Of a DNA stretch of 20,000 nucleotides, positions 1-15,000 are shown piece by piece. A program made the translations under genes and the position numbers. The stretch lies in the IMG/VR virus record IMGVR_UViG_3300037189_025930; one strand, 5' to 3'. The notes beneath the pieces are model-generated. The model did no database searches, was not told the origin of the DNA, and worked only from the letters and a program-made list of their open reading frames with translations. This DNA comes from an uncultured virus (IMG/VR IMGVR_UViG_3300037189_025930) (lineage: Duplodnaviria; Heunggongvirae; Uroviricota; Caudoviricetes). Position 1 is the first letter of the stretch. The number at the start of each line of letters is the position of its first letter.

Positions 1-75
1 TTTCAGTTAGAAGAATCTATTAATCAATATCGTAACATCTTATTAGAAAATAATTTGAGTGAACATTTACTTTGA
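1..75 (+). CDS. 3' end of a hypothetical protein (partial), C-terminus ...LLENNLSEHLL
   Basis: Frame 1 is open from the window edge (FQLEESINQYRNILLENNLSEHLL). Its TGA at 73-75 overlaps the TTG start of the next gene. It carries the shared E-x-x-[LI] C-terminus. Confidence 0.7.
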   Translation, partial: FQLEESINQYRNILLENNLSEHLL

Positions 76-464
76 AATTTGAAGGATATTACGTTCATAT
101 TATTGATGATAATTACGTTAATAATGGTAATTTATATGGATATAAATTAGATTTAATTAATTTTAATAATTATTATTTTATATCTTATTTTTCTGAATAT
201 CATTATGTGGACGTTAAAGATAACGTTTTAATGGAATTTCGTTATTTTGATAAACGTTATGATATCAAAAAAACTTTTAATTTAGAAAGATTACTTTTAA
301 AGGATGTTAAATATGATCATATATATGATGTTAATATAAAAAAAATGTATCCTTTAAATTTAAAAACTTTTTTTAACTTAAAAAGGAATAGACCAAAATC
401 TATGAAATCAGAATATATTAATGAATATTTTATTGAAAATAAATTATATGAGCTAGTGATATGA
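72..464 (+). CDS. hypothetical phage protein (130 aa), C-terminus KLYELVI
   Basis: ORF track; 4-nt start/stop overlaps with both neighbours; shared C-terminal pattern. Confidence 0.75.
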   Translation: MKFEGYYVHIIDDNYVNNGNLYGYKLDLINFNNYYFISYFSEYHYVDVKDNVLMEFRYFDKRYDIKKTFNLERLLLKDVKYDHIYDVNIKKMYPLNLKTFFNLKRNRPKSMKSEYINEYFIENKLYELVI

Positions 465-796
465 AAAACAGTTATTATATTTATCTTAATTGCCATCAAA
501 TTAATCATCAAATAATTGAATGCGTTTTATTTGATTTAGAAAATAAAAAAATATATGATCCATCAATCGTTAATGAGTTTGATAAAAAAAATGATTTAAT
601 AGGTGATAACTATGTTGATTTTATTTTAAACGATGAATTATATGAAGAGTATTTAGTTAGTTATCCTGAGGATGAAGTATTTGTTTTGACACCTCAACAA
701 TTAAATTATATATTAGGACTTCATCCTAATCAAATTTTTAGTCAAAGTTTAGAGGATCTTTTTACAACTCTTAAATTAGAGGAATATCTAATTTAA
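461..796 (+). CDS. hypothetical phage protein, ~100-aa paralog family, C-terminus LKLEEYLI
   Basis: ORF track; ATGA overlap with the upstream gene; N-terminus (YIYLNC..NHQIIECVLFD) resembles 8488..8811. Confidence 0.8.
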   Translation: MKNSYYIYLNCHQINHQIIECVLFDLENKKIYDPSIVNEFDKKNDLIGDNYVDFILNDELYEEYLVSYPEDEVFVLTPQQLNYILGLHPNQIFSQSLEDLFTTLKLEEYLI

Positions 797-806
797 TATG
801 ATATAC

Positions 807-844
807 TTTTAGGTTTATGCATCTACTCAAAATTCTAGTATTCT
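807..844 (+). promoter_or_regulatory. conserved phage promoter TTTTAGGTTTATGCA-N17-TATTCT
   Basis: Matches the repeated motif; followed by AGGAG SD and GTG at 867. Confidence 0.7.
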
Positions 845-866
845 ATATACTAGAAGGAGAAATAGC

Positions 867-1151
867 GTGAGTATATATAAAATAAGTAAAAAAGGTTCTG
901 AAGATTATTCTGGAGCAATAATTGGCGGCGAGTTTTCAAAGTTTGAAGCTTTTAGTATTTTTAATAAAAAGTGTAATTTTGGAGATAATAATATTTTTGA
1001 ACAGTTTGATATTGAAGAATTTCAAGATCTTCAAAAAGCTTTAGAAAAAATAGATTGTCCAGTTCTAGCACCTAGATATAAAAAAATGAATCGTAAATCA
1101 AGTGAAGCAAAAATAGTAATTTTACAATGGTATAAAGGATGGATAAAATGA
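867..1151 (+). CDS. hypothetical phage protein (94 aa)
   Basis: ORF track; strong SD (AAGGAGA) before GTG. Confidence 0.8.
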   Translation: MSIYKISKKGSEDYSGAIIGGEFSKFEAFSIFNKKCNFGDNNIFEQFDIEEFQDLQKALEKIDCPVLAPRYKKMNRKSSEAKIVILQWYKGWIK

Positions 1152-1303
1152 AGAAAGAAGTTTTAATTTGTGGAACATGTAAGCAAGTTATTAAAGATGG
1201 AAAGAAGCATCATTGTGAGGATGTTTCTTCTAATAAAAGAAATGAGTATTATATAGATGATAAATTAAAAACTAATTACTTTTTATCTTTTCTTAAAAAA
1301 TAA
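1148..1303 (+). CDS. small putative zinc-binding protein (51 aa; CGTC...HHC)
   Basis: Translated by hand: MKKEVLICGTCKQVIKDGKKHHCEDV...FLKK. ATGA overlap with 867..1151. Below the ORF-track length cutoff. Confidence 0.6.
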   Translation: MKKEVLICGTCKQVIKDGKKHHCEDVSSNKRNEYYIDDKLKTNYFLSFLKK

Positions 1304-1462
1304 CAATATTCTTATAATTATCATTATTGGATAAAAAAGAGAAAACAAAGCAAACATCTTTATTTTATCTTGTTCTTCAATATAAGAATCGTCTAAGAAA
1401 TAAAAAATTAAACCTAAAATAGTTCCTATCGTTATATAACAAAAAAGAATTTTTATTTTCAT
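1283..1462 (-). CDS. small membrane protein (59 aa, two hydrophobic segments)
   Basis: Translated by hand: MKIKILFCYITIGTILGLIFYFLDDSYIEEQDKIKMFALFSLFYPIMIIIRILLFFKKR. ATGA overlap with the stop of the upstream gene. Confidence 0.65.
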   Translation of the reverse strand: MKIKILFCYITIGTILGLIFYFLDDSYIEEQDKIKMFALFSLFYPIMIIIRILLFFKKR

Positions 1463-1632
1463 AAAAAAGTCTTTTTAAAGATTTTGAAAAAATCTTTTTC
1501 ATTTTTAACAAAAAATTTATCTTTATCTTTTTGCTTATAAAGAATTTTAAATTCATTACGATTATCAAGATATTGATCTATTATTTGATATATATTTTTA
1601 CCTTTTAATCCTTGATAAAAAGTATTATTCAT
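1459..1632 (-). CDS. hypothetical protein (57 aa)
   Basis: ORF track 1459..1656. Start refined to ATG 1632, which overlaps the upstream TGA and follows GGAGGA. Confidence 0.65.
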   Translation of the reverse strand: MNNTFYQGLKGKNIYQIIDQYLDNRNEFKILYKQKDKDKFFVKNEKDFFKIFKKTFL

Positions 1633-1907
1633 AATGTCCATTCCTCCAATAAACATGCTTGTAAAAATTCTTGTCTATTTAAACAACAAAAATGAATTAA
1701 ATTTATTTTACTAAACAGTTCATAATATTTATCTGATATTGGTATTGAATCTTTAATAATATTTTTATAATATGTTTCTATTTTTTTTATTTTAAATTCT
1801 TTTTTTTGATGTATAACTATATCTTTATCGGTATCTATAACTAAAATATTAAGTATTTTATTTGTTATCTTTGAATCTTCTATATATAATCTTTTTTTAT
1901 TTTTCAT
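1629..1907 (-). CDS. hypothetical phage protein, ~100-aa family, C-terminus LLEEWTL
   Basis: ORF track 1629..1919; likely start is ATG 1907 (TAATG coupling). Confidence 0.75.
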   Translation of the reverse strand: MKNKKRLYIEDSKITNKILNILVIDTDKDIVIHQKKEFKIKKIETYYKNIIKDSIPISDKYYELFSKINLIHFCCLNRQEFLQACLLEEWTL

Positions 1908-2185
1908 TAAATTTGCCACTCTTGTAGTTTTAATTTTTCTAAAAATTGTTTTTCAGATAACGCTGTTATTTCATTTTTTATCTCATATATATTATCCTCA
2001 TTAAATGGTATTCTTTTCCAGCTATTAGTTGGAAACACTTCGTTAAAACCTTCTGTTGATAATGGATCAATGTTACATATAGTCCCAGCAAAAGAAAACA
2101 TTTTTATTTTTTCTTCTTTTTTAAAATATAAGTAAAATACATCAATTTTATTTATATATAAACTATACACTAAATAACAATTCAC
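1907..2185 (-). CDS. hypothetical phage protein, ~100-aa family, C-terminus LKLQEWQI
   Basis: ORF track; overlaps both neighbours by 1-4 nt. Confidence 0.75.
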   Translation of the reverse strand: MNCYLVYSLYINKIDVFYLYFKKEEKIKMFSFAGTICNIDPLSTEGFNEVFPTNSWKRIPFNEDNIYEIKNEITALSEKQFLEKLKLQEWQI

Positions 2186-2688
2186 AATAAATATTCTACC
2201 TTATTTATATCAATTAAAAATTGTCTATAATCGTTAGCATAGTCAGAATCTAAAATAATTTCATTTCCTAATTCAAAATAATCTTTTAAAACATGCTTAG
2301 CATATAAAAAAGAATAATATGGACTATTAGATATTTTTTTTTCTCCTTTTTCCCATCTACCTTTTATTATATAAAGAGAATAATAATAAGAAGCATCAGA
2401 ATATAATAAAATCTTTTTTTCACTTTTTATCCATCTTTTTTTTATTACTCTACGACAATAAAGAACGATTTCTTTAGAATTAACTCTTCCATTTGATCTT
2501 AAAAAATTTTTTTCTAAATCTTCCCATCTACCTTTAATAATATTACTAGCATAATAAATTGCATACTCTTTATATCTTAATAATCTTTTTTCGTTCTCAA
2601 GATCCCTTTTTTTACTCTTTTTACAATCTTTAAGAATTTTTTTTGCTTCAGCATAAGAAGTTTGATAAATCATGTTCATAAAAGCCAT
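2182..2688 (-). CDS. 26-aa helical-repeat protein (Y[ACS]xxxIKxRWxxxExxI), C-terminus NKVEYLL
   Basis: Repeats visible in the translation; paralog of 9089..9406 and 13863..14501; true start uncertain (see findings). Confidence 0.8.
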   Translation of the reverse strand: MAFMNMIYQTSYAEAKKILKDCKKSKKRDLENEKRLLRYKEYAIYYASNIIKGRWEDLEKNFLRSNGRVNSKEIVLYCRRVIKKRWIKSEKKILLYSDASYYYSLYIIKGRWEKGEKKISNSPYYSFLYAKHVLKDYFELGNEIILDSDYANDYRQFLIDINKVEYLL

Positions 2689-2801
2689 TCAGTTTTCCAG
2701 TGTTTTTAGTAATTTCATAAATATCTTTAAGTGTTATTATATCGCTATTCAAAAATATTTTCCTCTATTATGTGTTTATAATAAAAATATTCCCTATTAT
2801 T

Positions 2802-2840
2802 ATTATATAGTAAATATATTTGAATGTTTAAACTTGAAAA
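2802..2840 (-). promoter_or_regulatory. promoter variant TTTCAAGTTTAAACA-N17-TATAAT
   Basis: Same -35 core and exact 17-nt spacing as the conserved motif. Confidence 0.6.
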
Positions 2841-2927
2841 CTGATTAAATTTTGATCACTTATTTTTAATGTTTTTAAATATTTAAAATATTTTTCAATT
2901 AATTGATCTCAAATTTTGAAAATATCA

Positions 2928-3224
2928 TTATATAAAATACTCCTCAAAGCCATGTTCTACATGAAAATTACTATTGTTTTCTTTATTAAAAGAAATAGAT
3001 AATAAATACCTAAGTTTATCTTTATTTATAAGTTGATTTTTATTTTTTGTAAAAGGCATAGTCGTGTAATATACAAACCAATTATTTTTTAATTTCCTTC
3101 TAAGAGTTAAATATTTAGTTGGATTCATAAAAGTAATAATAAGATTTGAATAAACATAATTTTTTCTATAAATGTAAATAATAACAGAATCGTTAAATTT
3201 TGAGACACTAATATAATCATTCAT
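2928..3224 (-). CDS. hypothetical phage protein (98 aa), C-terminus HGFEEYFI
   Basis: ORF track; promoter immediately upstream (likely leaderless). Confidence 0.7.
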   Translation of the reverse strand: MNDYISVSKFNDSVIIYIYRKNYVYSNLIITFMNPTKYLTLRRKLKNNWFVYYTTMPFTKNKNQLINKDKLRYLLSISFNKENNSNFHVEHGFEEYFI

Positions 3225-3230
3225 TAACTC

Positions 3231-3259
3231 ATTTTATTTATTAATAAAATGAATGTTTA
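3231..3259 (-). promoter_or_regulatory. promoter TAAACA-N17-TAAAAT, 6 nt before ATG 3224
   Basis: Spacing counted by hand; overlapped by a 10-bp inverted repeat (3229-3238 / 3243-3252). Confidence 0.5.
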
Positions 3260-3262
3260 TTT

Positions 3263-3598
3263 TTAAATAAATTGATCAGCATTTTGTTCTACAAATTTTT
3301 TAACCATAAGGTGTGTAAGATCATCTTCATTTATAATACCTTCTTTTATATAATTAAAAGGTCCAGTATAAAAATATTTTAATTTAGAAGTTCCAGGTAC
3401 ACACCAATATCCTATTTTCTTATGCTTTCTTAAAATACCAAGTTGATATAATTTAGTAATGTTTGTTGACCAAGATGAATAATTAATTGGATCTTTTCTT
3501 CCAGAGATTCTCCAAATTTCTTCAATCATTTGTTTTCTTTTTAGAGTTTTTTCTTCTAAAACTTTTACTAATTGTCTAACAATAGAATTTTCTTTCAA
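3263..3598 (-). CDS. hypothetical protein, possible winged helix-turn-helix
   Basis: ORF track; helix-turn-helix-like pattern followed by LYQLGILRK...GYW wing-like segment (by eye); promoter and AGGT SD upstream. Confidence 0.7.
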   Translation of the reverse strand: MKENSIVRQLVKVLEEKTLKRKQMIEEIWRISGRKDPINYSSWSTNITKLYQLGILRKHKKIGYWCVPGTSKLKYFYTGPFNYIKEGIINEDDLTHLMVKKFVEQNADQFI

Positions 3599-3617
3599 TT
3601 TTATTACCTACTAGATA

Positions 3618-3655
3618 ATTATACTTACATTTTAATACAATGATTAATCCTAAAA
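3618..3655 (-). promoter_or_regulatory. conserved phage promoter TTTTAGGATTAATCA-N17-TATAAT
   Basis: Match to the repeated motif. Confidence 0.75.
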
Positions 3656-3683
3656 TATTAACATCTAAACAAAAAACTAACGC

Positions 3684-4208
3684 TTAAGCGTTAGTTTTTT
3701 CACTTTCTAATTGTTGAACTAATAATCCCATACAGTGTTTTAATACAAAGATTGGAAGTGTCGCCATAGTTAAAGATACGAATAAATGAAAAAATTGTCC
3801 AGGATCTAAAAAACTAAGAAGTAAATTTTTAAAAGTTGATCCACCAGCACTGTGAAGAGATAACATCAAGTTAGCATATACAGAAATAGTGAATGTTGAA
3901 AAAGTAGATATGTTAATTAATTTTTTATCCCTCATAAGATAAAAAACTATAATCATCATATCTAAAAAAGCAGTTAATCCAATAGCGTATATATCAGCAT
4001 AATGAGAGCCTATCATATCGAACCTTGATTCAGATATTTGGTGTCTAACTGCGTGATAATTACTAATTGTACCAACAACTCCAGATGTTAATGCTACTCC
4101 AAATTTTAATTTTTTGCTTTCAAAAAAATTAAAAAATTCAGATTCCCCAATTTTAAATGCTTCTTCTTGTGAGAAGTATTGTTTTTGAATCCATGGTTCT
4201 GTTTTCAT
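3684..4208 (-). CDS. multi-pass membrane protein (174 aa)
   Basis: ORF track; about four hydrophobic segments. Confidence 0.8.
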   Translation of the reverse strand: MKTEPWIQKQYFSQEEAFKIGESEFFNFFESKKLKFGVALTSGVVGTISNYHAVRHQISESRFDMIGSHYADIYAIGLTAFLDMMIIVFYLMRDKKLINISTFSTFTISVYANLMLSLHSAGGSTFKNLLLSFLDPGQFFHLFVSLTMATLPIFVLKHCMGLLVQQLESEKTNA

Positions 4209-5009: not shown

Positions 5010-5047
5010 AATATACTATAATATATAATAAGTGTTTAAACCTAAAA
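5010..5047 (-). promoter_or_regulatory. conserved phage promoter TTTTAGGTTTAAACA-N17-TATATT
   Basis: Match to the repeated motif. Confidence 0.75.
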
Positions 5048-5073
5048 ATAAAACACTTAATATATTAAAACAC

Positions 5074-5352
5074 ATGAAAGAAAATTATTACCTTGGTTTT
5101 ACTTTAAAAAATGAAAAAATATCATCCATTAGAGTGTACGATAAAAACAAAGGAGATATTTTTTTTTTAGATAATCCAAACGAATTTTCAATGAAAGGAA
5201 ATTTACTTTTTTTTAAATTAAATTTAGATTTTTTTGTTCCAATAAATAAAGTTTTATTTTTTAAAGTTCTAAATTTAAAAAGAAAAGATTATAGAAAAAT
5301 AGATTTAAAAACGTTTTTAATTTATAATGGATTAGAGGAGTGGTGTTTATAA
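5074..5352 (+). CDS. hypothetical phage protein, ~100-aa family, C-terminus NGLEEWCL
   Basis: ORF track 5032..5352. The GTG at 5032 lies inside the opposite-strand promoter, while ATG 5074 (MKENYYLGF) fits the family N-terminus. Confidence 0.7.
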   Translation: MKENYYLGFTLKNEKISSIRVYDKNKGDIFFLDNPNEFSMKGNLLFFKLNLDFFVPINKVLFFKVLNLKRKDYRKIDLKTFLIYNGLEEWCL

Positions 5353-5637
5353 AATAAATTCTTCAAAATTATATTTTTTATAAAAATCAATTAAAAACAT
5401 ATCTTTAATATCTCTAAAATCAGCTTTTAAAAATTGATTAAAAGTTTTTTCATCTATATTAATTAGATGTGGGTCACTTTGAAAATTTGCTAAATAAAAC
5501 GATAAGTCTGAACTATAATCTTTAATTATTTTTTCACCTGTATATTTTAAATTGTTTTTAGCGTCAAATACAGATAATCCTATTATTTTTTGATTATCAT
5601 TTATTTTAATTGATAATGTATATTCTTTTTGATTCAT
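5347..5637 (-). CDS. hypothetical phage protein, ~100-aa family, C-terminus YNFEEFIL
   Basis: ORF track; AAGGA SD; convergent 6-nt overlap with 5074..5352. Confidence 0.8.
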   Translation of the reverse strand: MNQKEYTLSIKINDNQKIIGLSVFDAKNNLKYTGEKIIKDYSSDLSFYLANFQSDPHLINIDEKTFNQFLKADFRDIKDMFLIDFYKKYNFEEFIL

Positions 5638-5724: not shown

Positions 5725-6984
5725 TTAATCTATATTAAAAACTTTTGCTTTTTTGAAATTAGAAATATCTAACGCTAATTTTCCATCTTTGGGTAAAAGA
5801 AAGAATATATTTTGTTGAGGTACTTCTTTCCAAGAATTTTCAATTTCTCCATCCGTTAATACTATTATATAGTCACAACGAATTTTTTTATTTTTAATAT
5901 GTTCAATTGCTGGATAAAGATAAGTACCACCTCTACCAACAATACCTACTTTCTTATTAGAAGGAGTATATTTTTTAATACTATGTACTTGAGCATCTAC
6001 CTGAATTAGTTCGACTTCAGAATTAGTTGATTTACATAAGTTATCAATTTCTCCTAAAGTTTTAGAAATAAATTCATTACTAACTGATCCAGAAGTATCT
6101 AATATTACTACTCCTTTAGAAGAATAAGTTTTTATAAATCCTTTAATTTCTACTCGATTCATAAATCTACGATTTCTTCTTTTTATAGACTCTTCTACAT
6201 CTATGGAAGAATTAGAAGCTTGATTACGAATATGCTTTTTCCAATCAATTTTCTTAGAACGAAGTTTTTCAATTTCATCTGCAATATCAGATGGTATCAA
6301 TCCCCTACTTTTATTCTCAGCATGTTGAATTAATTTCTCCCTCATAAGATTTACTAATTCTTCATTTACTTCACCTTCGTTACGATCGTCTGCTACGTGA
6401 GGGTCAATTTCATATTCTTTGACACCACTTTTAGATTTAACCCTCATAATAACTTTCGATATTTTCTTTCCATTGCCTTGCTGCGGATTTCCATTGTTGT
6501 TATCGTCAGAAGAACCGTCTTCATAAATTACTTTGAAAGAAATTTCTTTATCGTCAATTTTCTTTCTAAGAAAAGAATAATAATTCTCCGCAGATAATTT
6601 TGGTTCTAATCCAAATTTTTCTGGTAACATACAGTCTGGCGGTAAATCCTTGATAAATTGATTTAAAGCAGTATCTGTTGATATATTCCAGCAAAATCTT
6701 CTTTTATTCTTTGCTCTACCTATATGATTAAGAATTATATGTAAAGCTTCGTGAACTAATATTGATCTTCTTTCTTTTAGAGAGTATTCAGAAAACTTTT
6801 CTAAATTAATCACTAAATTAAATTGACTTTTTGCGAAATATACCCCAGCAGGTGCAGGTAGTGTATTATCAAAATGTACTTTTGTGGCTGCAATTATGTG
6901 ACCATAAAATACATATTGATTTTCTTGTCCCCAAAGAGTATTAGCCATTGTTTCTTCATAGACTTCTTTGTTGATTTTATCCAT
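5725..6984 (-). CDS. HExxH metallopeptidase-like + VWA domain protein (DUF2201-type partner of MoxR AAA+)
   Basis: HEALH motif, C-terminal MIDAS DTSGS, GRGGT and LTDG; AGGAGG SD; adjacent to the AAA ATPase. Confidence 0.9.
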   Translation of the reverse strand: MDKINKEVYEETMANTLWGQENQYVFYGHIIAATKVHFDNTLPAPAGVYFAKSQFNLVINLEKFSEYSLKERRSILVHEALHIILNHIGRAKNKRRFCWNISTDTALNQFIKDLPPDCMLPEKFGLEPKLSAENYYSFLRKKIDDKEISFKVIYEDGSSDDNNNGNPQQGNGKKISKVIMRVKSKSGVKEYEIDPHVADDRNEGEVNEELVNLMREKLIQHAENKSRGLIPSDIADEIEKLRSKKIDWKKHIRNQASNSSIDVEESIKRRNRRFMNRVEIKGFIKTYSSKGVVILDTSGSVSNEFISKTLGEIDNLCKSTNSEVELIQVDAQVHSIKKYTPSNKKVGIVGRGGTYLYPAIEHIKNKKIRCDYIIVLTDGEIENSWKEVPQQNIFFLLPKDGKLALDISNFKKAKVFNID

Positions 6985-7154: not shown

Positions 7155-8312
7155 TTATTTCTTGTTGTCGAATTTATCTATAATCCTTCGGAAAATTTCT
7201 TTTTCTCTAAATTTTCCAGCAGCTGCTGAATCACAACGAGCTAAACCAGCGTATAATTCTTTCATATTTTCATCGTCTTTTTCTTTAAGACCTTTTAGAA
7301 TAGAATGTGAAACTTCTAATTCTAAAGAATAGAAAAAAGCCATAACTGGAAAAGCGGTTTCAAATGCTTTATCTATTGTTGCAATAGTAGCTGTTTTTGG
7401 AATATACTTTTTAAGTAAGTCCTCTCCAATAAGAGAAAGTTTTATGACTTCGATAGTAGAGAGAACTGGTTTTAGTATCTCCATAGCTTCGTCCATGTTT
7501 TCTTTCTTCCTATTCTTAATTTTCTTAATTGCTTTTTCAATACTTTCCATAGAAAGTGCTTGTTTTTCTTTCCAATAAATAGAAAATTGATTACCAACGC
7601 TTCTACCAATCTTTCCATTTACAAAAGTTTGAAGTAAAAAGAATTTTTCCTCATCTGCTTCTTTTTCAAGTTCTAAAACTTTTAGAAAATTAGATACTTT
7701 TACCCAGCTTCTTGGAGTAGGATGGTTGATTTCATTTTCATTGTTAGTTTTGAACCACAATTTATCTGGATTATCTGCTACAAAAGAAACTACTGTTTCA
7801 TTGACTGACTTTTTTCTAGCCCATTCAATCCACTCTTCAGTGTTTGCTTTCAATTCAATAGCTTCAAATCTATCTAAAAGTGCTGGATCTAATTCAGACA
7901 CTTGGTAATCATCTTCTGGATTAACTGCTGCTACTACTAAAGAATCTTTTGGAAGTACGTGCTGGTGAATTTGCTTAGATAATACTAACTGTAAAGCAGA
8001 TTGTCTAACATCTAATCTTGCTCTGTTTAATTCATCTAAGAATAATACACACGTTTTTCCATTCTTAGAAGCATCATAAATTCTTTGTAACCAGATTGGT
8101 GTACTCCATACGGTATTTCCATTTTCTAAATATGGAATACCAATTAAATCTCCAGTTTCTTGGTGAGAAAGAAATAAAATTTCGCAATGATAACCTTTTT
8201 CTTTTGCGAATGCTTCTACTCTTTCACTCTTCCCTATTCCGTGAGGTCCCTTTAATAAGACTGAATTGTCGGATTTTTGACAAAGGTCTAATATTTTTTC
8301 TAAATTCCTCAT
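7155..8312 (-). CDS. MoxR-like AAA+ ATPase (AAA_5-type)
   Basis: Walker A GPHGIGKS, DLIGIP, Walker B LFLDELNRA, AAVNP sensor, LDPALLDRF arginine finger, PTPRSW; AAGGAG SD. Confidence 0.92.
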   Translation of the reverse strand: MRNLEKILDLCQKSDNSVLLKGPHGIGKSERVEAFAKEKGYHCEILFLSHQETGDLIGIPYLENGNTVWSTPIWLQRIYDASKNGKTCVLFLDELNRARLDVRQSALQLVLSKQIHQHVLPKDSLVVAAVNPEDDYQVSELDPALLDRFEAIELKANTEEWIEWARKKSVNETVVSFVADNPDKLWFKTNNENEINHPTPRSWVKVSNFLKVLELEKEADEEKFFLLQTFVNGKIGRSVGNQFSIYWKEKQALSMESIEKAIKKIKNRKKENMDEAMEILKPVLSTIEVIKLSLIGEDLLKKYIPKTATIATIDKAFETAFPVMAFFYSLELEVSHSILKGLKEKDDENMKELYAGLARCDSAAAGKFREKEIFRRIIDKFDNKK

Positions 8313-8487: not shown

Positions 8488-8811
8488 ATGAATAAAAATA
8501 AAATAAACGCTTATTTGTGTCTTAATTTATTTAACGATAAAATTATTACCTGCGTTTTATATCATTATGTTGATAAAGAAAATTATCTAGTTTATAATGG
8601 ATATTCTTATTTTTCAGATTCTAAACAAGAGAAAACCAAGAACCAAAATGATTTTAAATATGAATTGAAAATTAAATTTAATCTTTCTATAAAGATAAAT
8701 AATAAAGATCTTTTTGAAGAACTTTTAAAACTAAATTTTAAAGAAGATGTTTTAAATAAAAATAAAGTTGATTTTTTAGGTAAATTTAATCTACATGAAT
8801 GGGTGATATGA
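8488..8811 (+). CDS. hypothetical phage protein, ~100-aa family, C-terminus FNLHEWVI
   Basis: ORF track; similar to 461..796. Confidence 0.8.
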   Translation: MNKNKINAYLCLNLFNDKIITCVLYHYVDKENYLVYNGYSYFSDSKQEKTKNQNDFKYELKIKFNLSIKINNKDLFEELLKLNFKEDVLNKNKVDFLGKFNLHEWVI

Positions 8812-9092
8812 ATTATTTTCTTTGTATAAAAACATCAAAAAGTTATTTAGATTCAGATTGCTTAATAAAAAATTATGTTCTTGTAAATCAGGAAAATACT
8901 GAAACAGAAATTTATTTTGAGAATGGACAAAATATCATTTCTAATAATCATAAATTATTAAATGATATTAATTGGGATTTTAAATTATTAATCAATCAAG
9001 AACAATATTTTATAATAAAAGAAAATAATCTTGTCTTTAGAAGATTAAAAAGTGTTTTAAATCAATTAAAATTAATAGAACACCTAATATGA
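8808..9092 (+). CDS. hypothetical phage protein, ~100-aa family, C-terminus LKLIEHLI
   Basis: ORF track 8799..9092; ATGA coupling favours a start at 8808. Confidence 0.75.
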   Translation: MNYFLCIKTSKSYLDSDCLIKNYVLVNQENTETEIYFENGQNIISNNHKLLNDINWDFKLLINQEQYFIIKENNLVFRRLKSVLNQLKLIEHLI

Positions 9093-9406
9093 CACCTATT
9101 GAAGCTTTACATAAAAGTTTATCTATGGATAAAAGAATAACAGAACTAGAAAAAATTATTGCTACTGATGCTGAGCAATCTTTTTATTATGCTATGTATA
9201 TGATTAAAGGAGCTTGGGATGAAGGAGAAGAAGTTATTTCTAAAGATGCATACGTATCTTATTTTTATGCTATTAATATATTAGAAGATATTTTTGAAAA
9301 AGGTCATCATACTATTTTTAAATCTCAATATAAAGATGATTATATAGAATTTTTAAAAAAGAATAATAAGTATGATGAAAAAAAATTATTACAATGGATG
9401 ATTTAA
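9089..9406 (+). CDS. short 26-aa helical-repeat protein, C-terminus KLLQWMI
   Basis: YAMYMIKGAWDEGEEVI repeat unit; paralog of 2182..2688 and 13863..14501. Confidence 0.8.
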   Translation: MTPIEALHKSLSMDKRITELEKIIATDAEQSFYYAMYMIKGAWDEGEEVISKDAYVSYFYAINILEDIFEKGHHTIFKSQYKDDYIEFLKKNNKYDEKKLLQWMI

Positions 9407-9423
9407 AAAAAGAGGATAAAACT

Positions 9424-9750
9424 ATGAAAAAAAATACTTTTTACTATTTAGACGTAATAAGAGAGTTACCTGTTTTTTATAAAATAGAAACAGATTTATC
9501 TTTGAAAAGTTTAAGATCACTTTTAAAAAAGCAAGCAAAAATAGAAGCCAATAGATTAGGAATTAAAGAATCTTATTTCAGTGAAGGTCAATGTGAAAAT
9601 CCAGATTATTTTACTTTTGATGTTGATGCTGGAAATTTTAATTATGTTTTTTCACTTCAAACTTTTCTAAGTAAATTTAGATCTGAAGAACGTTTAACTT
9701 CTAAACTTGATTTTATAAATATGGAAATAAACAAAGAGGATTTAGAATGA
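9424..9750 (+). CDS. hypothetical phage protein, tandem paralog of 9747..10061
   Basis: ORF track 9394..9750; GAGG SD before ATG 9424; shares FYY[LI]D, FYKIxTDL and SKL blocks with the next gene. Confidence 0.8.
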   Translation: MKKNTFYYLDVIRELPVFYKIETDLSLKSLRSLLKKQAKIEANRLGIKESYFSEGQCENPDYFTFDVDAGNFNYVFSLQTFLSKFRSEERLTSKLDFINMEINKEDLE

Positions 9751-10061
9751 AAAACTTCTACTATATAGATTCACTTGATAATTCAAACGATGTTATTTTT
9801 TATAAAATTAAAACTGATCTTAATAAAGATCAGTTAGTTAATTTTATTCATAAAAATGCTATCAATTATTGTGAAAAACTTGAAATGGATATAGAAGAAT
9901 ATCTTTATAATCACGACGATGAATACGTTGAATTAGAAGTCCATAAAATAACATATCTTTTATCTTTAAGAACGTGTTTAGAAAAATCTGTTTTAGAATC
10001 TAAAATAAATTCTAAATTAAAATATCCTACAATTAATATAAAATCAGAATCTTTAATTTAA
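9747..10061 (+). CDS. hypothetical phage protein, tandem paralog, C-terminus IKSESLI
   Basis: ORF track; ATGA overlap; paralogy by eye. Confidence 0.8.
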   Translation: MKNFYYIDSLDNSNDVIFYKIKTDLNKDQLVNFIHKNAINYCEKLEMDIEEYLYNHDDEYVELEVHKITYLLSLRTCLEKSVLESKINSKLKYPTINIKSESLI

Positions 10062-10436: not shown

Positions 10437-10928
10437 TTAATAAAATTCATCTTCTAAATGTCTAATTTTAAAATTTTTTTTAGTAAAATTAGTAGGATTA
10501 AAATTAACTCCATTAAAAGATATTTCATAATGTAAATGAGGTCCAAAAGAAAGTCCAGTATTTCCAATGTAACCTATAATTTCACCTTGTTTAATTTCTT
10601 TAGATTCATTAAAATCAACTTTACTAAGGTGAGCAAAAAGATAATAAAAATTATCATAATCTTTTCCAATTATATAAAGACCATGATTTTCATTTCTTCC
10701 TACTTTAAATATTTTCATATCTATAGGTGAAATTATTGGTGTTCCATAAGGAGCAGAAAAATCTATTCCCCAATGAAAATTACCTTTTCTTTTTCCAAAA
10801 CCAGAAGATATTCTTACATCACGAACTGGATAAATATTATCTTGTCTTTTTTCTATTTTTTCTGGGTGATAACAAAATGCAAAAACATTTAGCAATAGGG
10901 GTATCAATATGATTAAAATTCTTTCCAT
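10437..10928 (-). CDS. M23 family peptidase (peptidoglycan endopeptidase-like) with N-terminal signal peptide
   Basis: ISSGFG.R, HWGID (HxxxD), FAHL, GYIGNTG.SFGPHLHYE (HxH); hydrophobic N-terminus. Confidence 0.92.
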   Translation of the reverse strand: MERILIILIPLLLNVFAFCYHPEKIEKRQDNIYPVRDVRISSGFGKRKGNFHWGIDFSAPYGTPIISPIDMKIFKVGRNENHGLYIIGKDYDNFYYLFAHLSKVDFNESKEIKQGEIIGYIGNTGLSFGPHLHYEISFNGVNFNPTNFTKKNFKIRHLEDEFY

Positions 10929-10936
10929 ATATTTTT

Positions 10937-11269
10937 TTATCTAATTTTTAGAAGTTCCCAGTTATTAATCGGGAAATTATGATTGATAATACTGTAATGT
11001 GGAGTATCAAAAATAATCTTCTTAATTATTCCTTTGTCAGAAAAATAAACCATAAAAGTATTTATTTCCTTATTTATTAAAACTTTAATTTCATCTAAAT
11101 ATGTAAAATTAAAATTTTGATTAAATAATTCTGGATATAAATCAAAAAACAAACTATAATAACTTAATTTAACTTTTTGGTCTTTTATTTCATTAATATT
11201 TGATTTTTTTTGGTAATCATCAAATTTTTCAATTAAAAAATTTGCTTTATCATTGTAATTATTTTCCAT
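10937..11269 (-). CDS. hypothetical protein (110 aa)
   Basis: ORF track; tightly packed in a minus-strand gene run. Confidence 0.7.
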   Translation of the reverse strand: MENNYNDKANFLIEKFDDYQKKSNINEIKDQKVKLSYYSLFFDLYPELFNQNFNFTYLDEIKVLINKEINTFMVYFSDKGIIKKIIFDTPHYSIINHNFPINNWELLKIR

Positions 11270-11272
11270 AAT

Positions 11273-11986
11273 TTAATTATAAGATATAATTCTACTAGAT
11301 ATATCTTTCAATAAAGAAATACCATTATTCTTAAAAAAAACTTTGTTATCGTCAAATAAAAATTTATTTGCATCACGATTATATAATTCTTTCAATAAGA
11401 AATCACTATTAATTGATGTAAATATTAAAAAACTATGAAAATCTTCTTCTTTTGTTTTTAACTGTTCTTCTGTTGCTATGTTTATTAATATATTTTCAAA
11501 TTCATTGCTATTTTTAAAATCTTTAAAAGTTTTATAAGTTGCCTTATATTCATTTTTCCATTTTTCTTTTACTTTTTTAAATAATAATAAACTTCTTTTT
11601 ATTTGATCAAAAATATTAAAAGTAAAATGTATTATAGAACCATAAAATTCAGATTCTACATCTGTGCTTTTTAAAATCATGTAATCTAAAATTTTATTAT
11701 ATTTATTAAAATTAAATTCTGCGATATCTTTTAAATTTTCTTCTAAATCGTTTATTTCATCAATAGAATAATTAAAATTATTTTCTGTTTCAAAATATAA
11801 AATGTAAGAAAAACCATTTTTATATACTTCATTAAAAAACGAATCAGTTATTTTATTGAGAAGTAAAAACTCATCTAAAACAGATTTGAAATTAAACGAC
11901 TTATCTAAATAATCATCGTTTAAAAAAAGACCATTGTTATTAAAATCATTAATATTATCTTCGTATTCTTTATCTAATAGTGACAT
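11273..11986 (-). CDS. hypothetical acidic protein (237 aa)
   Basis: ORF track; GGAGG SD. Confidence 0.8.
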   Translation of the reverse strand: MSLLDKEYEDNINDFNNNGLFLNDDYLDKSFNFKSVLDEFLLLNKITDSFFNEVYKNGFSYILYFETENNFNYSIDEINDLEENLKDIAEFNFNKYNKILDYMILKSTDVESEFYGSIIHFTFNIFDQIKRSLLLFKKVKEKWKNEYKATYKTFKDFKNSNEFENILINIATEEQLKTKEEDFHSFLIFTSINSDFLLKELYNRDANKFLFDDNKVFFKNNGISLLKDISSRIISYN

Positions 11987-12323
11987 TATTAACTTCCTCC
12001 TTTAGCTTATCTGGTAAATCAATAAATGGTATTTGAACAAAATTACTTTTAAAATAATTATCATTGACTATTTCAAATATATCTTTTCTTTTAATTATCC
12101 ATTCACTTTCAAAAATTACCTTAACTTCTTTTTTATGATAAAAAAATCCACCTACGTGATTAAACTTAGATAAATTATCATCAAACACTTTTTGTTGAAT
12201 CCCATTAATTATTTCAATACCAAAAAACACAAATTTTTCTTCTGGAAATATTTCTATGATTTTTTGAACGGTTTCTTTATTTAATTGAATTGCTTCACAT
12301 GGTTTTTGAACATATAAGTTCAT
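11970..12323 (-). CDS. hypothetical phage protein, resembles the 'KP..EAIQ...W(I/Y)IK' small phage family
   Basis: YVQKPCEAIQL and EWIIKR...YFKSNF pattern; family recognised by eye only. Confidence 0.75.
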   Translation of the reverse strand: MNLYVQKPCEAIQLNKETVQKIIEIFPEEKFVFFGIEIINGIQQKVFDDNLSKFNHVGGFFYHKKEVKVIFESEWIIKRKDIFEIVNDNYFKSNFVQIPFIDLPDKLKEEVNNVTIR

Positions 12324-12428
12324 CTATTCGTCTTCAATGTTTTTATTTATAAAAGCATAATAAAAAAAAGTTAAAAGTAAAGTTGCTGTTAAAGCAAAGG
12401 TTACAAAAGAAAACAAATCGCTTAGCAT
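12324..12428 (-). CDS. single-pass membrane micro-protein (34 aa)
   Basis: Translated by hand: MLSDLFSFVTFALTATLLLTFFYYAFINKNIEDE. It fills the gap, and its TAG abuts the next ATG. Confidence 0.55.
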   Translation of the reverse strand: MLSDLFSFVTFALTATLLLTFFYYAFINKNIEDE

Positions 12429-12432
12429 TAAT

Positions 12433-13416
12433 TTACCTTTGATTATTGATAAAAATATCGTATTCATTTTTTATTTTTTCCTCAAAATATTCTATATTAT
12501 AAGTTTCTATATTTTCAATTATTGATTTATTTCTCTCTTTAAAGAAAATAATAAATTCACCTAATTTTTTTTCTTTTAATCCAGTGATATTAAAAAATAA
12601 ATCACCAGAAATCATTTTTCGTATAATCTTATTTTTCTCTTGTTCTTTTAACAAAGAAACATACTCTTTTTCTTTATTAAAGTATGATAAAGATTTATAT
12701 TTCATGTATTCAATATTAGGAGTAGGATCACTAAAAGTTTTATCTTTTAAATAATGTAAAAAATTATTATAAGTATTTCTTTTAGAATTACGTGACCTAT
12801 TCTTATTATTAAGGTTTTCAAATTGAAAATATTGAGAACTAAAATAGGGTATTTCAGTTATATGTTTATACATCTCTTCAAAAGTATCAAAACCGTCACT
12901 TAAAATCTTTTTAATAAAAACATTACCACAACCTAAGAAATTAAGAATAGATTCAGTATCATTCGATAAAAGGATTTTAGTATTATCTAATTTTAGATAT
13001 AAACCCTGATGTCCATAATTAAAATTAAGAGCATGGTAAATAGATCCTATTAGGTTTCCTCTATCGTTATCAGCAAAATAATAATAACTCGTATTAAGAT
13101 GTTGTTTTGAAATAAAAATAATATCTATTTGATAGTCACTAAAAGCTAAAGAAAAAACATTATCGTTAGTAATTTTACCTTGAAATGAATAATTATTTTT
13201 TTCAATTTCAACGATTATTTGATTATTTTTTTCTTCTCTTTTTAATTCAGAATAACATAAAAAATCTATGTCTCCAAAATCTTTTTTCTCTTTAATTTCT
13301 CTTACAGGAACTAAATCGTCAATAATTGAAAGGTTTGATATTATATTATTTCTAATATTTATATCAAACCTTTTTGCTTCTTTCCCTATTATAGGAATAA
13401 TAGCTTTTCCACCCAT
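12433..13416 (-). CDS. putative nucleotidyltransferase (Pol-beta superfamily), phage type
   Basis: MGGKA N-terminus, DFGDIDFL (GDxD) and YQIDII third aspartate. ORF track start is 13434; likely start is ATG 13416. Confidence 0.75.
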   Translation of the reverse strand: MGGKAIIPIIGKEAKRFDINIRNNIISNLSIIDDLVPVREIKEKKDFGDIDFLCYSELKREEKNNQIIVEIEKNNYSFQGKITNDNVFSLAFSDYQIDIIFISKQHLNTSYYYFADNDRGNLIGSIYHALNFNYGHQGLYLKLDNTKILLSNDTESILNFLGCGNVFIKKILSDGFDTFEEMYKHITEIPYFSSQYFQFENLNNKNRSRNSKRNTYNNFLHYLKDKTFSDPTPNIEYMKYKSLSYFNKEKEYVSLLKEQEKNKIIRKMISGDLFFNITGLKEKKLGEFIIFFKERNKSIIENIETYNIEYFEEKIKNEYDIFINNQR

Positions 13417-13422
13417 ATTATT

Positions 13423-13450
13423 ATTATATACCAAGTTGTTTTAATGTTTA
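13423..13450 (-). promoter_or_regulatory. promoter variant TAAACA-N16-TATAAT, 6 nt before ATG 13416
   Basis: Spacing counted by hand; no SD upstream of the ATG. Confidence 0.55.
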
Positions 13451-13491
13451 AGTAAAAATTCAATTACTCAAACATTAAAACTTTATATTTT

Positions 13492-13722
13492 TTAATAAAC
13501 TAAATCAACATAATCGCCAAAATACTTATCAAAAACTCGTGTTAAGTGATTATAATCTGAACTCGTCATGTCTTTTCTTATTTCTTCCCAAGGAGGCAAC
13601 TCTATTCCTCCTCTTGTAAGATCTCTATGAAGATTCTTTCCTGCTCCAATAATATAAAAAGCATTACCTTGAGAACCCTTGAGGTCTATTTCTTCTTTTC
13701 TAATTTCTTTTGGTTTTATCAT
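13492..13722 (-). CDS. conserved small phage protein (IDLxGxxGNAF motif)
   Basis: ORF track; AAGGAGA SD; IDLKGSQGNAFYIIG...MTSSDYNHL..VFDKYFG pattern. Confidence 0.85.
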   Translation of the reverse strand: MIKPKEIRKEEIDLKGSQGNAFYIIGAGKNLHRDLTRGGIELPPWEEIRKDMTSSDYNHLTRVFDKYFGDYVDLVY

Positions 13723-13745
13723 ATACTTTTTCTCCTTATAGTTAA

Positions 13746-13783
13746 ATTGTATAATAATTAGAAACTAACGACTAAACCTAAAA
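13746..13783 (-). promoter_or_regulatory. conserved phage promoter TTTTAGGTTTAGTCG-N17-TACAAT
   Basis: Match to the repeated motif. Confidence 0.75.
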
Positions 13784-13811
13784 AGTAATCAGTATATAAA
13801 AAATATCATAT
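13762..13811. repeat. 50-bp direct repeat, copy 1
   Basis: 48/50 identical to 14551..14600. Confidence 0.95.
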
Positions 13812-13819
13812 TAAAAATT

Positions 13820-13845
13820 TAGGGATAATTGAATAATTATCCCTA
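13820..13845 (-). terminator. hairpin / likely terminator downstream of 13863..14501
   Basis: 11-bp perfect stem TAGGGATAATT/AATTATCCCTA, 4-nt loop, followed by AATTTTT on the minus strand. Confidence 0.65.
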
Positions 13846-13862
13846 CTAATAATTCTTTTAAT

Positions 13863-14501
13863 TCATAATAAAAATTCAATATATTCATCTTTAATTTCTT
13901 GAGTATTAATTCGTAGCTTTTCAAGAAGATTAAGATATTTATTTCTCCATTCAGAATTAGAAGATGTAAAAATTGTCTTATGAGCCATTGGAAATTTATC
14001 ATTAATAAACTCAGCATAAAGAAAGGAATACTCTGCATTTGTACTAATAGTTTTTTCTGCTTCTGGCCATCTGCTAAAAATATATTCTTTAGCATATATA
14101 TAAGCACTATCTGGTTTAGATGCTATTATTTGTTCACCTTCTGGAAATCTTTGTTTTATTATCGTTCTTACATAATATAACGTAGGATAACATTCTTGTA
14201 AAATTAAAGGTTCAGCTTTTGTAAATCTTTTACTTATTACAAGTTTAGCGTAACGTGTTGAAGCATTAATGTTTGAACTAATAATATCTTCGCCCTCTAA
14301 CCATTCTCCACGTATAACTGAACTAGCATATTTTAACGCTAAGTCTGCATCTTTAATAACCTCTTGTTCTAATTCTTTAATTCTTATTTTTCTAGCTGCT
14401 GCATAATTAATGGATTTTTTAATATCTAAAAGATCAAAATCTTTATTCTTTAGATCTTGTTTATTTAAATCTTTAATTGTAAGTATTTGTAATTTATTCA
14501 T
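13863..14501 (-). CDS. 26-aa helical-repeat protein (4 repeats plus cap), C-terminus EYIEFLL
   Basis: Four consecutive units with exact 26-aa period; AAGGAGA SD. Confidence 0.88.
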   Translation of the reverse strand: MNKLQILTIKDLNKQDLKNKDFDLLDIKKSINYAAARKIRIKELEQEVIKDADLALKYASSVIRGEWLEGEDIISSNINASTRYAKLVISKRFTKAEPLILQECYPTLYYVRTIIKQRFPEGEQIIASKPDSAYIYAKEYIFSRWPEAEKTISTNAEYSFLYAEFINDKFPMAHKTIFTSSNSEWRNKYLNLLEKLRINTQEIKDEYIEFLL

Positions 14502-14534
14502 AGTTGTCTCCTTTATTTGTTACTATTTTAGTTA

Positions 14535-14572
14535 ATAATATAATAAATACAAACTAACGATTAAACCTAAAA
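14535..14572 (-). promoter_or_regulatory. conserved phage promoter TTTTAGGTTTAATCG-N17-TATTAT
   Basis: Match to the repeated motif. Confidence 0.75.
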
Positions 14573-14600
14573 AGTAATCAGTATATAAAAAATATTATAT
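14551..14600. repeat. 50-bp direct repeat, copy 2
   Basis: 48/50 identical to 13762..13811. Confidence 0.95.
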
Positions 14601-14800
14601 GATTAATTCTGGATTATTTTTAATAACATGATTTAAAAAAAATCCTGTGTTCTATTAAAAGATTCTATTGTTGTAATAGAATAAAATTTTCTAAATTTTA
14701 TTAATGATGATTTGTTTTGTAATTCTTTAAAAAGCCAACGAATTTGTATCTCCCCAATTTCAATAATAGCATCACTTTCAATTTTATATATATATTTCAT
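14595..14800 (-). pseudogene. frameshifted paralog of 14797..15000 (55-aa ORF 14633..14800; C-terminus VIKNNPELII lies in the -1 frame)
   Basis: MKYIYKIE...SFNRTQDFF stops just after a T8 tract. One extra T gives ...DFFLNHVIKNNPELII, matching the neighbour's YTYKIE...IRKNHPELLL. Confidence 0.6.
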
Positions 14801-15000
14801 AGTAATAATTCAGGATGATTTTTTCTTATATATTCCTTTGCTCTTAAAGTTGCATCATAACGCTTTGTACCAAGTACTTCACTTGAATTAAATAAATCTT
14901 CTAATATCCAAACATTATTTTTTTTACCATCTATAAATTCTACTAAAAAATCACCTAAATTATAACGATTATATTCAATTTTATAAGTATAATTATTCAT
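14797..15000 (-). CDS. small hypothetical phage protein, C-terminus KNHPELLL
   Basis: ORF track; ATGA overlap with the downstream paralog. Confidence 0.75.
   Translation of the reverse strand: MNNYTYKIEYNRYNLGDFLVEFIDGKKNNVWILEDLFNSSEVLGTKRYDATLRAKEYIRKNHPELLL

Follow-up and report, generated by a model that had tools for sequence, protein, structure and literature searches.

In the 20,000-nucleotide window analyzed here, which is the reverse strand of positions 230,229–250,228 in the single 290,274-bp record of an uncultured tailed phage (IMG/VR IMGVR_UViG_3300037189_025930), many small proteins end in the same short peptide, E-x-x-[LI], with Glu fourth from the end (position −4, counting the last residue as −1) and Leu or Ile last. 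Genome-wide counts confirmed that this tail is real, far beyond chance, and larger in extent than first noted. The explanation tentatively preferred, with a probability of roughly 45%, is that the tail is a protein-level terminal cap whose codons double as a translational coupling junction, and that its sharing among unrelated proteins would be due to life in chained gene arrays.

The E-x-x-[LI] C terminus is found on 87 of 428 open reading frames (ORFs) across the whole 290-kb genome, or about one gene in five. The ORF set comes from greedy longest-ORF calling at a minimum of 40 aa, which covers 94% of the genome and in which stops are reliable and starts are not. Composition predicts 5.3 such ends and the internal frequency of the pattern 5.4, while 2000 shuffles of the last 20 residues of each protein gave 8.0 ± 2.8, with a maximum of 18. 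Glu occupies position −4 in 116 of the 428 ORFs (4.0-fold enrichment), and the excess extends to other tail positions, with Trp at −3 enriched 5.75-fold and Leu at −6 2.1-fold. A stricter six-residue pattern fits 59 of the 428 ORFs, against 0.22 expected, and within the first 10 kb of the record the motif stands on 31 of 36 ORFs. Collapsing paralogs leaves 30 of 317 sequence clusters in which at least half of the members carry the motif (4.0 expected). Outside the three families A, B, and C described below, the tail is found on 24 of 186 proteins shorter than 150 aa, against 2.3 expected, and on 5 of 178 proteins of at least 150 aa, against 2.2 expected (P = 0.075). The sequence-only reading of this DNA, from which the analysis set out, had the recognizable enzymes without the tail, and this holds, the larger proteins outside the families being at chance level. 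By eye, two more C-like ends, roughly KNHPEYIL and ENHPPELII before their stops, lie at about 40.9 kb and 42.8 kb of the genome, just before called genes and on ORFs outside the ORF set, so that 87 is possibly an undercount. A partial version of the tail grammar is seen in larger proteins at genome positions 177,583–180,341, where three coupled paralogs of 210–238 aa end in [WM]-E-[IL]-[AQ]-Q, with Glu at −4, a hydrophobic residue at −3, and Gln last.

The same reading had proposed that the shuffle comparison be made separately for coupled and uncoupled genes, and the excess is present in both. Among ORFs coupled to a downstream gene through an ATGA stop–start overlap, 49 of 85 carry the motif (shuffles 2.2 ± 1.4); among strictly uncoupled ORFs, i.e., those that converge on the next gene or are separated from it by over 60 nt, 21 of 154 do (shuffles 2.6 ± 1.6); and among the remaining ORFs 19 of 192 do (shuffles 3.1), the classes summing to 431 ORFs and 89 carriers rather than 428 and 87, with a slight overlap between the first two sets. 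The 21 strictly uncoupled carriers bear out the earlier observation that the tail also sits on genes ending convergently or before intergenic DNA, and is not confined to coupled ones.

Fourteen strict tails had been listed in the window, together with three near-matches (LQWMI at 9406, ADQFI at 3263, and a frameshifted PELII at 14595). All of them are present, on the following genes:

1..75, plus strand: 3′ end of a 113-aa ORF that starts outside the window and resembles a coiled coil; tail NNLSEHLL; the stop TGA is overlapped by the TTG of the next ORF.
72..464, plus strand: 130-aa orphan small protein; tail KLYELVI; ATA TGA gives an ATGA overlap with the next gene.
461..796, plus strand: family B, 111 aa; tail LKLEEYLI; uncoupled, ending ATT TAA, with a 70-nt gap to the next gene.
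1629..1919, minus strand: family B (by the wider profile), 96 aa; tail LLEEWTL.
1907..2185, minus strand: B-like 92-aa protein beyond the reach of the profile; tail KLQEWQI.
2182..2688, minus strand: family A (26-aa repeat Y..YA..IKGRW.EGE), 168 aa; tail NKVEYLL.
2928..3224, minus strand: 98-aa orphan; tail GFEEYFI; convergent end, ATA TAA.
3263..3598, minus strand: 111-aa protein outside families A, B, and C; near-match ADQFI, probably not part of the phenomenon.
5032..5352, plus strand: family B, 106 aa as called; tail GLEEWCL; convergent with the next gene, TTA TAA.
5347..5637, minus strand: family B, 96 aa; tail NFEEFIL; convergent, TTA TAA.
8488..8811, plus strand: family B, 107 aa, the member modeled with AlphaFold; tail NLHEWVI; predicted local distance difference test (pLDDT) score 91.2, residues 103–105 helical.
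8799..9092, plus strand: B-like 97-aa protein; tail KLIEHLI; ATGA-coupled to the next gene.
9089..9406, plus strand: family A, 105 aa; degenerate tail LLQWMI; an 83%-identical relative (P0014) ends LLEWII.
9747..10061, plus strand: 104-aa protein; tail KSESLI, which may be chance because the paralog at 9394–9750 ends NKEDLE.
13863..14501, minus strand: family A, 212 aa; tail EYIEFLL; 140 nt to the next gene.
14595..14800, minus strand: family C copy split by a frameshift; the called ORF ends FNRTQDFF at 14633, and the other frame runs on to NNPELII and a stop at 14595.
14797..15000, minus strand: family C, 67 aa, modeled with AlphaFold; tail RKNHPELLL; pLDDT 91.1, residues 63–66 helical.

The carriers fall largely into three families, which were defined by iterative profile searches after deletion of the last 10 residues and which form groups without overlap. 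Family A consists of the helical 26-aa repeats Y..YA..IKGRW.EGE and has 16 members, 12 of them carriers. Family B proteins are alpha/beta and about 100 aa long, and all 24 members found by the first profiles carry the tail; family C proteins are about 67 aa long and end N[HY]PELLL, with 16 carriers among 17 members. Wider profiles that include database homologs raise family B to 31 members with 30 carriers and family C to 18 members with 16 carriers. The three families together account for 58 of the 87 carriers. About ten of the 29 outside them look like chance cases, e.g., ribonucleotide reductase and the UvdE endonuclease; the others are small proteins with B-like or C-like ends, and one resembles a coiled coil. 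In profile–profile comparison with hhalign, family C shows no relation to B (probability 0.4%) or to A (0.07%). A and B share a single local match over the last 17 columns (E = 0.012, probability 3.5%), which lends weak support to the idea that family A may have borrowed the tail of family B. The suggestion that at least four families carry the tail survives in part: three families are unrelated by profile–profile comparison, B and C also by predicted fold, whereas the proposed pair at 9394 and 9747 is weak, with the motif on one of its two members. The converse possibility, that all carriers are one homologous fold, is contradicted by the differences between the carrier families in hhalign and in predicted fold.

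The families and their tail are undescribed in Pfam, PHROGs, PDB, BFVD, and the searched literature. The 24 members of family B gave only stray matches in Pfam and PHROGs, all with E above 0.002. Foldseek returned no significant match for family B in PDB (best E 0.58) or BFVD (0.13), or for family C in PDB (0.61). A VIA fold search with family B gave no match (best Z 4.1), and the Protein Atlas feature search gave no usable match, the Atlas's own model being poor (predicted template modeling score 0.28). A literature search on phage paralog arrays with conserved C-terminal motifs found nothing relevant.

Conservation of the tail extends well beyond this genome. A family B profile search of 1.84 billion representative proteins found 135 clusters, all of 84–127 aa, of which four are identical to ORFs of the genome under study; the profile contained the tail, which gives some bias to tailed matches, yet E-values down to 1e-21 demand full-length similarity. 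The motif ends 127 of the 135 clusters. Of the 135, 131 have Glu at −4, 116 have Ile at −1, and 102 have Leu at −6 (116 have either Leu or Ile there); an aromatic residue or His (W/Y/H/F) occupies −3 in 115, Glu occupies −5 in 70, and one of G, N, S, or D occupies −7 in 87. Family C yielded 72 database clusters, 71 with the motif and all 72 with Glu at −4; here −3 is Leu in 67, −5 is Pro in 70, −6 is His or Tyr in all 72, and −7 is Asn in 64. Glu is the lowest-entropy column of both families, at 98% of 132 family B sequences and 100% of 60 family C sequences, and it is the sole invariant column among the 24 family B paralogs of the genome, which have a mean identity of 23%. The consensus tails, LEE[WYH][LIA]I for B and N[HY]PEL[LIMF][LI] for C, have in common only this Glu and a general hydrophobicity. 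Family A behaves differently from either. Its repeat is common in longer metagenomic proteins, and among the 42 homologs read of 44 found, the tail is on only four near-relatives of the phage. Other family A homologs end EY[IV]KFIK, ESCKE, or EFLKDHPEVKEEN, and the EFLKDHPEVKEEN end, found on some of the distant ones, is a longer C-like form.

Three natural tandem fusions of family C (P0180, P0181, and P0185) keep the tail of the first copy internally. In these proteins the first tail (HPEIIM or YPEVSM) leads straight into the second copy, as if an ATGA junction had turned in-frame. A related contig (L020, G+C content 28.9%) carries the motif on 19 of 49 ORFs, in a chain of mixed C-, A-, and B-type genes. 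The metagenome-contig search that started from a narrower family alignment (A5) returned eight loci, of which L020 and L021 are the only true relatives. L022–L027, with G+C content of about 37%, were set aside as unrelated loci, and L019, from viral contigs, as a false positive with G+C content of 41.5% and its match within a 1628-aa ORF.

AlphaFold models built from deep alignments are available for one family B and one family C protein. The family B model (pLDDT 91.2) has four strands, a helix, a strand, and then three helices, and its tail is helical at residues 103–105, with pLDDT 80 in the last block. The family C model (pLDDT 91.1) has three strands, a short helix, and a long helix; residues 63–66 are helical directly after helix 46–61, and the last block has pLDDT 90. 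In both models the tail is an ordered one-turn helix, with a short turn between it and the last long helix. In the helix capping box rule, S/T/N/D/G-x-x-E, Glu stands at N3. The tail grammar fits such a box: 87 of 135 family B clusters have G, N, S, or D at −7, and 64 of 72 family C clusters have Asn there.

The relation of the tail to the next gene was followed at the codon level. An overlap with the following same-strand gene is seen in 55 of the 87 carriers, while 11 are convergent and 10 have more than 60 nt after them. The ATGA overlap with a downstream ORF of at least 40 codons occurs in 49 of the 87, and in all 49 the last codon is ATA, TTA, or CTA followed by the stop TGA, which makes the ATGA. 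The tail Glu codon then lies 9–11 nt before the overlapping ATG, which is the position of the Shine–Dalgarno (SD) core in this phage. Genome-wide, Glu is encoded by GAA in 87.6% of cases and by GAG in 12.4%; the tail Glu is GAG in 27 of 49 coupled carriers, in 8 of 21 strictly uncoupled ones, and in 5 of 19 others. Contig L020 shows the same shift, with GAG at 10 of 21 tail Glu residues versus 55 of 332 internal ones. Strictly uncoupled carriers most often stop with TAA (12 of 21), and 12 of the 21 have ATT or ATC as their final codon.

Controls set the limits of what coupling does. In 23 ATGA-coupled genes of at least 150 aa outside the families, Glu is at −4 in six, always as xxG GAA/GAG, and Gly is at −4 or −5 in six; the full motif is on none of the 23, most of which end in K, Q, T, A, or P. 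For T4, the first 100 kb was analyzed with the same ORF caller (168 ORFs); Glu is at −4 in 6 of 24 coupled and 12 of 144 uncoupled ORFs, and the full motif is on one of 24 and one of 144. Coupling thus accounts for about a four-fold rise of Glu at −4 and for nothing beyond it, the full motif being near-absent from both sets of coupled controls. The tail also persists where coupling or its SD role falls away. Uncoupled members keep it in six of six cases in family B and three of four in family C; a 4-mer SD core stands at the right place in only 17 of 49 coupled carriers, including 2 of 15 in family C; and at least six carriers, counted by reading the listing, keep the tail despite a separate GGAG in the following spacer. 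The residues are therefore selected as residues. The sequence-only reading had offered as its alternative that Glu codons supply the SD of a coupled downstream gene. This is right in that codons −4 and −5 are the site of the SD core, that about 25% of unrelated coupled genes have Glu at −4, and that GAG usage is shifted. It falls short in that coupling alone does not bring the full tail and uncoupled members retain it.

The preferred explanation joins these two levels. The tail would be a selected peptide that forms a short terminal helical turn, of the form turn/N-cap-x-x-Glu-hydrophobic-hydrophobic-Leu/Ile-COOH, and it would close the fold of several unrelated, hugely expanded small-protein families in the variable regions of a T4-like jumbo phage lineage. 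At the same time, a last codon ending in A followed by TGA would give the ATGA stop–start overlap with the next gene, and the Glu codon, preferentially GAG and often after a G, would stand at the SD core position of the phage. A coupling junction of this kind should favor Glu at −4 followed by A/T-rich codons, and the small folds may have recruited, and then fixed, the junction residues as a hydrophobic end-cap. Such fixation would explain why uncoupled members retain the tail residues. Sharing across families would then come mainly from the common chained-gene architecture, with no single partner involved. The enrichment, the independence of the families, the conservation across hundreds of database clusters, the change in codon choice that goes with coupling, the shortfall of coupling by itself, and the order of the tails in the models are the observations that this explanation takes in; we infer the order of events, with the junction first and recruitment by the folds second, as well as the absence of a hub. 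The differing consensuses of B and C at −3 and −5 point to independent solutions to one constraint rather than to one docking consensus, and the internal first-copy tails of the family C tandem fusions also count in favor of this explanation.

Several points weigh against a cap that doubles as a junction. Glu is conserved above the core residues (98% in B and 100% in C), which is more typical of a functional contact than of a cap. The stop falls exactly three residues after Glu in 127 of 135 B and 71 of 72 C diverged clusters; more variation would be expected at a purely structural end, although an exact end could also be set by the ATGA overlap. At least four architectures carry the tail, namely helical repeats, an alpha/beta fold, three strands plus a helix, and a coiled-coil-like protein. 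Distant family A homologs (e.g., P0001, P0023, and P0032) lack it, and therefore the tail can be gained as a unit. The tail counts among database homologs are counts irrespective of the coupling state of those genes, and it is from pLDDT and DSSP alone, rather than from coordinates, that we infer that the last three hydrophobic residues would be buried.

The record has direct terminal repeats, is rated complete, and has a G+C content of 25.6%; a one-base difference separates the window from the genome record at window position 11806. The genome includes a T4-type structural module with a gp23-type capsid protein, a gp20-type portal, an S77 prohead protease (E = 9e-20), a T4-type terminase, and a sheath, and it also encodes a split DnaE polymerase, DnaB, a sigma-70-like factor, and three MoxR-type AAA+ ATPases. 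No close phage was found among GenBank relatives, the best capsid protein identity being 31%. The DnaE-type polymerase lies in two ORFs about 4 kb apart (42,860–44,509 and 48,373–50,415 of the genome, locus L007), the first with the PHP domain and the start of the alpha domain and the second with the rest of alpha, the fingers, and HHH, with other ORFs between them.

Within the window, Pfam matches are limited to a VWA/DUF2201 metallopeptidase, a MoxR ATPase, an M23 peptidase, a PD-(D/E)XK nuclease, and a Tad3-type Thoeris inhibitor; the scan gave no match for any small protein. The metallopeptidase (5725–6984, minus strand) adjoins the MoxR-type AAA+ ATPase (7155–8312, minus strand), and each is found behind its own copy of a promoter-like motif amid tail-bearing genes; two more MoxR-type genes lie elsewhere in the genome. 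Across 62 homologs, the VWA protein has an invariant HExxH and an invariant metal ion–dependent adhesion site (MIDAS), DxSxS..T..D. One homolog is on a 398,952-bp contig, and family A and C members are likewise found on 398,952-bp contigs. The Tad3 match (PF25185, E = 2.8e-36) is a strong one to the inhibitor of Type I Thoeris and belongs to a 173-aa protein at 15594–16115 on the minus strand, so that the region has at least one recognizable anti-defense gene. Two tandem paralogs of about 190 aa (16341–16910 and 16962–17546, both plus strand), each starting M..KFLK.LKDLI.INESN.DNKYVYR, have no family match and no tail motif.

The promoter-like motif consists of TTTTT[AG]GGTTTA..CA and, about 17 nt further on, a hexamer resembling TAGTAT/TATAAT, and it is strongly overrepresented ahead of genes. 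Its core TTT[AG]GGTTT occurs in 82 copies in the genome, with the intergenic copies mostly 43–75 nt before start codons and nearly all of them in small-gene regions (2–40, 110–113, 198, and 235–284 kb). The sites include those ahead of tail-bearing units and of the MoxR and VWA genes, and the motif is absent before the structural genes. In the window TTTRGGTTTW is found nine times against 0.94 expected:

808..817, plus strand, and copies starting at 1409 (minus), 4223 (plus), 5037 (minus), 7068 (minus), 8398 (minus), 8445 (plus), 13773 (minus), and 14562 (minus): TTTRGGTTTW copies that head small-gene units, including tail-bearing ones.

Several pairs of the motif are divergent, e.g., 8398 and 8445. 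Analogy with the PeSL cassettes discussed below and with the early promoters of T4, which are the basis for an early reading of the motif, suggests that these units may be of the early class. Predicted stem-loops at the motif (six folded) were no better than shuffles, with z from −0.19 to +1.25. A second large expansion lies at 21–32 kb of the genome (L006), an 18-member paralog family of 58–226 aa whose tails are mostly ..KK, none with the E-x-x-[LI] motif; many genes of that stretch stand behind their own copy of the promoter-like motif, often as divergent pairs.

A possible but doubtful alternative is that the tail is a docking tag, in which a free C-terminal E-hydrophobic-hydrophobic-[LI]-COOH would join about 80 small proteins to one hub, either of the host (e.g., the sliding clamp, an unfoldase/protease, or RNA polymerase) or of the phage (e.g., the VWA-MIDAS/MoxR pair). 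Such a tag would account for a tail on unrelated folds, for Glu as the most conserved column, for the fixed distance to the free carboxylate, with the exact end kept in nearly every B and C cluster, and for the preference for small proteins that is seen among the orphans on either side of 150 aa. The acidic-aromatic-aliphatic-aliphatic pattern also resembles the clamp-binding ends of T4, SLDFLFG in gp43 and SLDFLYEAND in gp55 (T4 record), a resemblance rather than a test, and class II PDZ ligands are similar to it. The VWA protein that adjoins tail-bearing genes has an invariant MIDAS (D296, S298, S300, T354, and D378), a type of site that binds acidic ligand residues. However, no hub was found when the phage was searched with DnaN, the T4 gp45 N-terminal domain, and three PDZ models (E up to 1), although silence from the gp45 model means little, as it matched only one of 14 control genomes and none over the cut-off. 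The tails are ordered in the models, with no flexible linker; the family consensuses differ at −5, −3, and −1; the first copy's tail is internal in the family C fusions; and coupling accounts for part of the shared Glu signal. The original suggestion of a library of variable domains plugging into one common hub found no support in these analyses, with no phage match to the DnaN, gp45, and PDZ models, tails modeled as ordered turns abutting the fold, and differing consensuses. Its fuller form, held to be similarly doubtful, is that the tail would serve as a genuine address label at the C terminus, either mirroring the T4 capsid-targeting sequence or acting as a docking motif of a new kind, and would plug about 80 fast-evolving early mini-proteins of at least four architectures into one hub, be it the prohead core, a host clamp or unfoldase, or a phage MoxR/VWA-MIDAS machine.

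The remaining explanations are improbable, and to differing degrees. The last residues in the ribosome might tune UGA termination so that restart on the overlapping AUG is efficient, in which case they would be selected for the translation of the next gene. This nascent-peptide aid would suit the presence of the motif on 49 of 85 ATGA-coupled ORFs, the use of TGA by every coupled carrier, and the family C chains, which restart with an SD core in only 2 of 15. It is nevertheless quite unlikely, given the 21 strictly uncoupled carriers, the tail on all six uncoupled members of family B, and the unrelated coupled genes that do without the motif (0 of 23). Slightly less likely still is a capsid-targeting or processing signal modeled on T4, by which the tail might take proteins into the prohead and a T4-type protease might cut after [LI]-x-Glu, removing the last three residues. 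T4 gp21 cuts after L/I-X-E, and Alt and gp21 itself are processed C-terminally, according to the portion of the source available (PMC9026906); the internal proteins of T-even phages are, in the available text of another source, diverse defense proteins with only the targeting sequence in common (PMC3012670). The phage has the S77 prohead protease, the gp23-type capsid protein, and the gp20-type portal; position −6 is Leu or Ile in 116 of 135 B clusters and Ile in most family A tails (..EI.EWLI), and the T4 targeting sequence MKTYQEFIAE contains E-F-I, like E-W-L. Yet position −6 of family C is His or Tyr, not Leu or Ile; the genes lie behind a sigma-70-like promoter motif that is absent before the structural genes, which suggests early rather than late expression; some 80 different packaged proteins would be unprecedented; and the tail is C-terminal, not N-terminal. 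The least probable explanation is that the pattern is a by-product of paralogy and of constraint on the RNA (SD and start codon), the peptide itself being under no selection. The placing of 58 of 87 carriers in three expanded families, the Glu at −4 in about 25% of unrelated coupled genes, and the enrichment of GAG at the tail Glu speak for it, but it is largely refuted by the controls, in which the full motif is on 0 of 23 and 1 of 24 coupled genes. The collapsed clusters keep the excess (30 of 317 versus 4 expected), the residues stay constant while their codons vary (ATA versus ATT/ATC, GAA versus GAG), and an aromatic residue at −3 and Leu at −6 are called for by neither an SD nor a start codon.

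A fifth of the genes of this 290-kb phage end alike, and they belong to at least three families without a match in Pfam, PHROGs, PDB, or BFVD. If the dual-coding explanation is true, these genes would be an unusually clean natural case of a translation-coupling signal fixed into several unrelated folds, and one that should help in understanding the evolution, and the annotation, of chained mini-gene arrays in giant phages. If docking is true, the tail would be a handle to the hub and a route to the function of hundreds of unknown metagenomic phage proteins; and if it is an address label, the jumbo phage lineage would have a plug-in library of host-takeover or anti-defense modules. On either reading, the motif is a simple marker for these families.

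Parts of this arrangement have counterparts in known systems. In the available part of the source, PeSL cassettes are variable small genes in the hyperplastic regions of T4-like phages, punctuated by a repeated early-promoter-like element (PMC4122927). A repeated early-promoter-like motif flanks variable small genes here too; unlike the PeSLs, it comes with no stable stem-loop in the six examples folded, and the PeSLs of that text concern DNA shuffling rather than a protein tail. The capsid-targeting sequence (CTS) of the T-even internal proteins IPI, IPII, and IPIII is likewise a short terminal peptide that is the sole thing common to diverse small proteins of variable regions, as far as the available text of two sources describes it (PMC3012670, PMC9026906). 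It also has Glu-aromatic-aliphatic within MKTYQEFIAE (IPII and IPIII, T4 record), and the same head protease family is present in the phage. The CTS is N-terminal, cleaved off, and, in those texts, proven to target the prohead, whereas the tail described here is C-terminal and is modeled within the fold, its genes look early, and family C has no L/I-x-E.

The clamp-binding tails of T4 gp43, gp55, and gp33 share with this phage an acidic-aromatic-Leu-hydrophobic pattern at or near the C terminus (compare EFLL, EWLI, and EFIL), but their carriers are a handful of replication and transcription proteins with flexible ends rather than about 80 mini-proteins, and the DnaN and gp45 models matched no clamp gene in the phage. 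In the beta-clamp consensus the first residue is Gln, and the phage tails have no such initial Gln. More general C-terminal docking peptides, such as class II PDZ ligands, encapsulin cargo-loading peptides, and the HK97 protease tail, usually sit on flexible linkers. Here the tails are modeled as ordered, and no PDZ match was found in the phage (E up to 1); what is alike is the free C terminus, a hydrophobic residue at the last and third-from-last positions with an acidic one before, and unrelated cargo bearing one short end. Another counterpart is the coupled gene chain with ATGA overlaps, in which the SD core lies in the last codons of the upstream gene; the overlap, the SD at codons −5 and −4, and the excess of Glu and Gly are found both here and in T4. 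Coupling by itself yields Glu at −4 in about 25% of genes and leaves the end without the hydrophobic residues; in the tails of this phage Glu reaches 98–100%, three hydrophobic residues follow it, and the whole tail stands on unrelated families and survives the loss of coupling.

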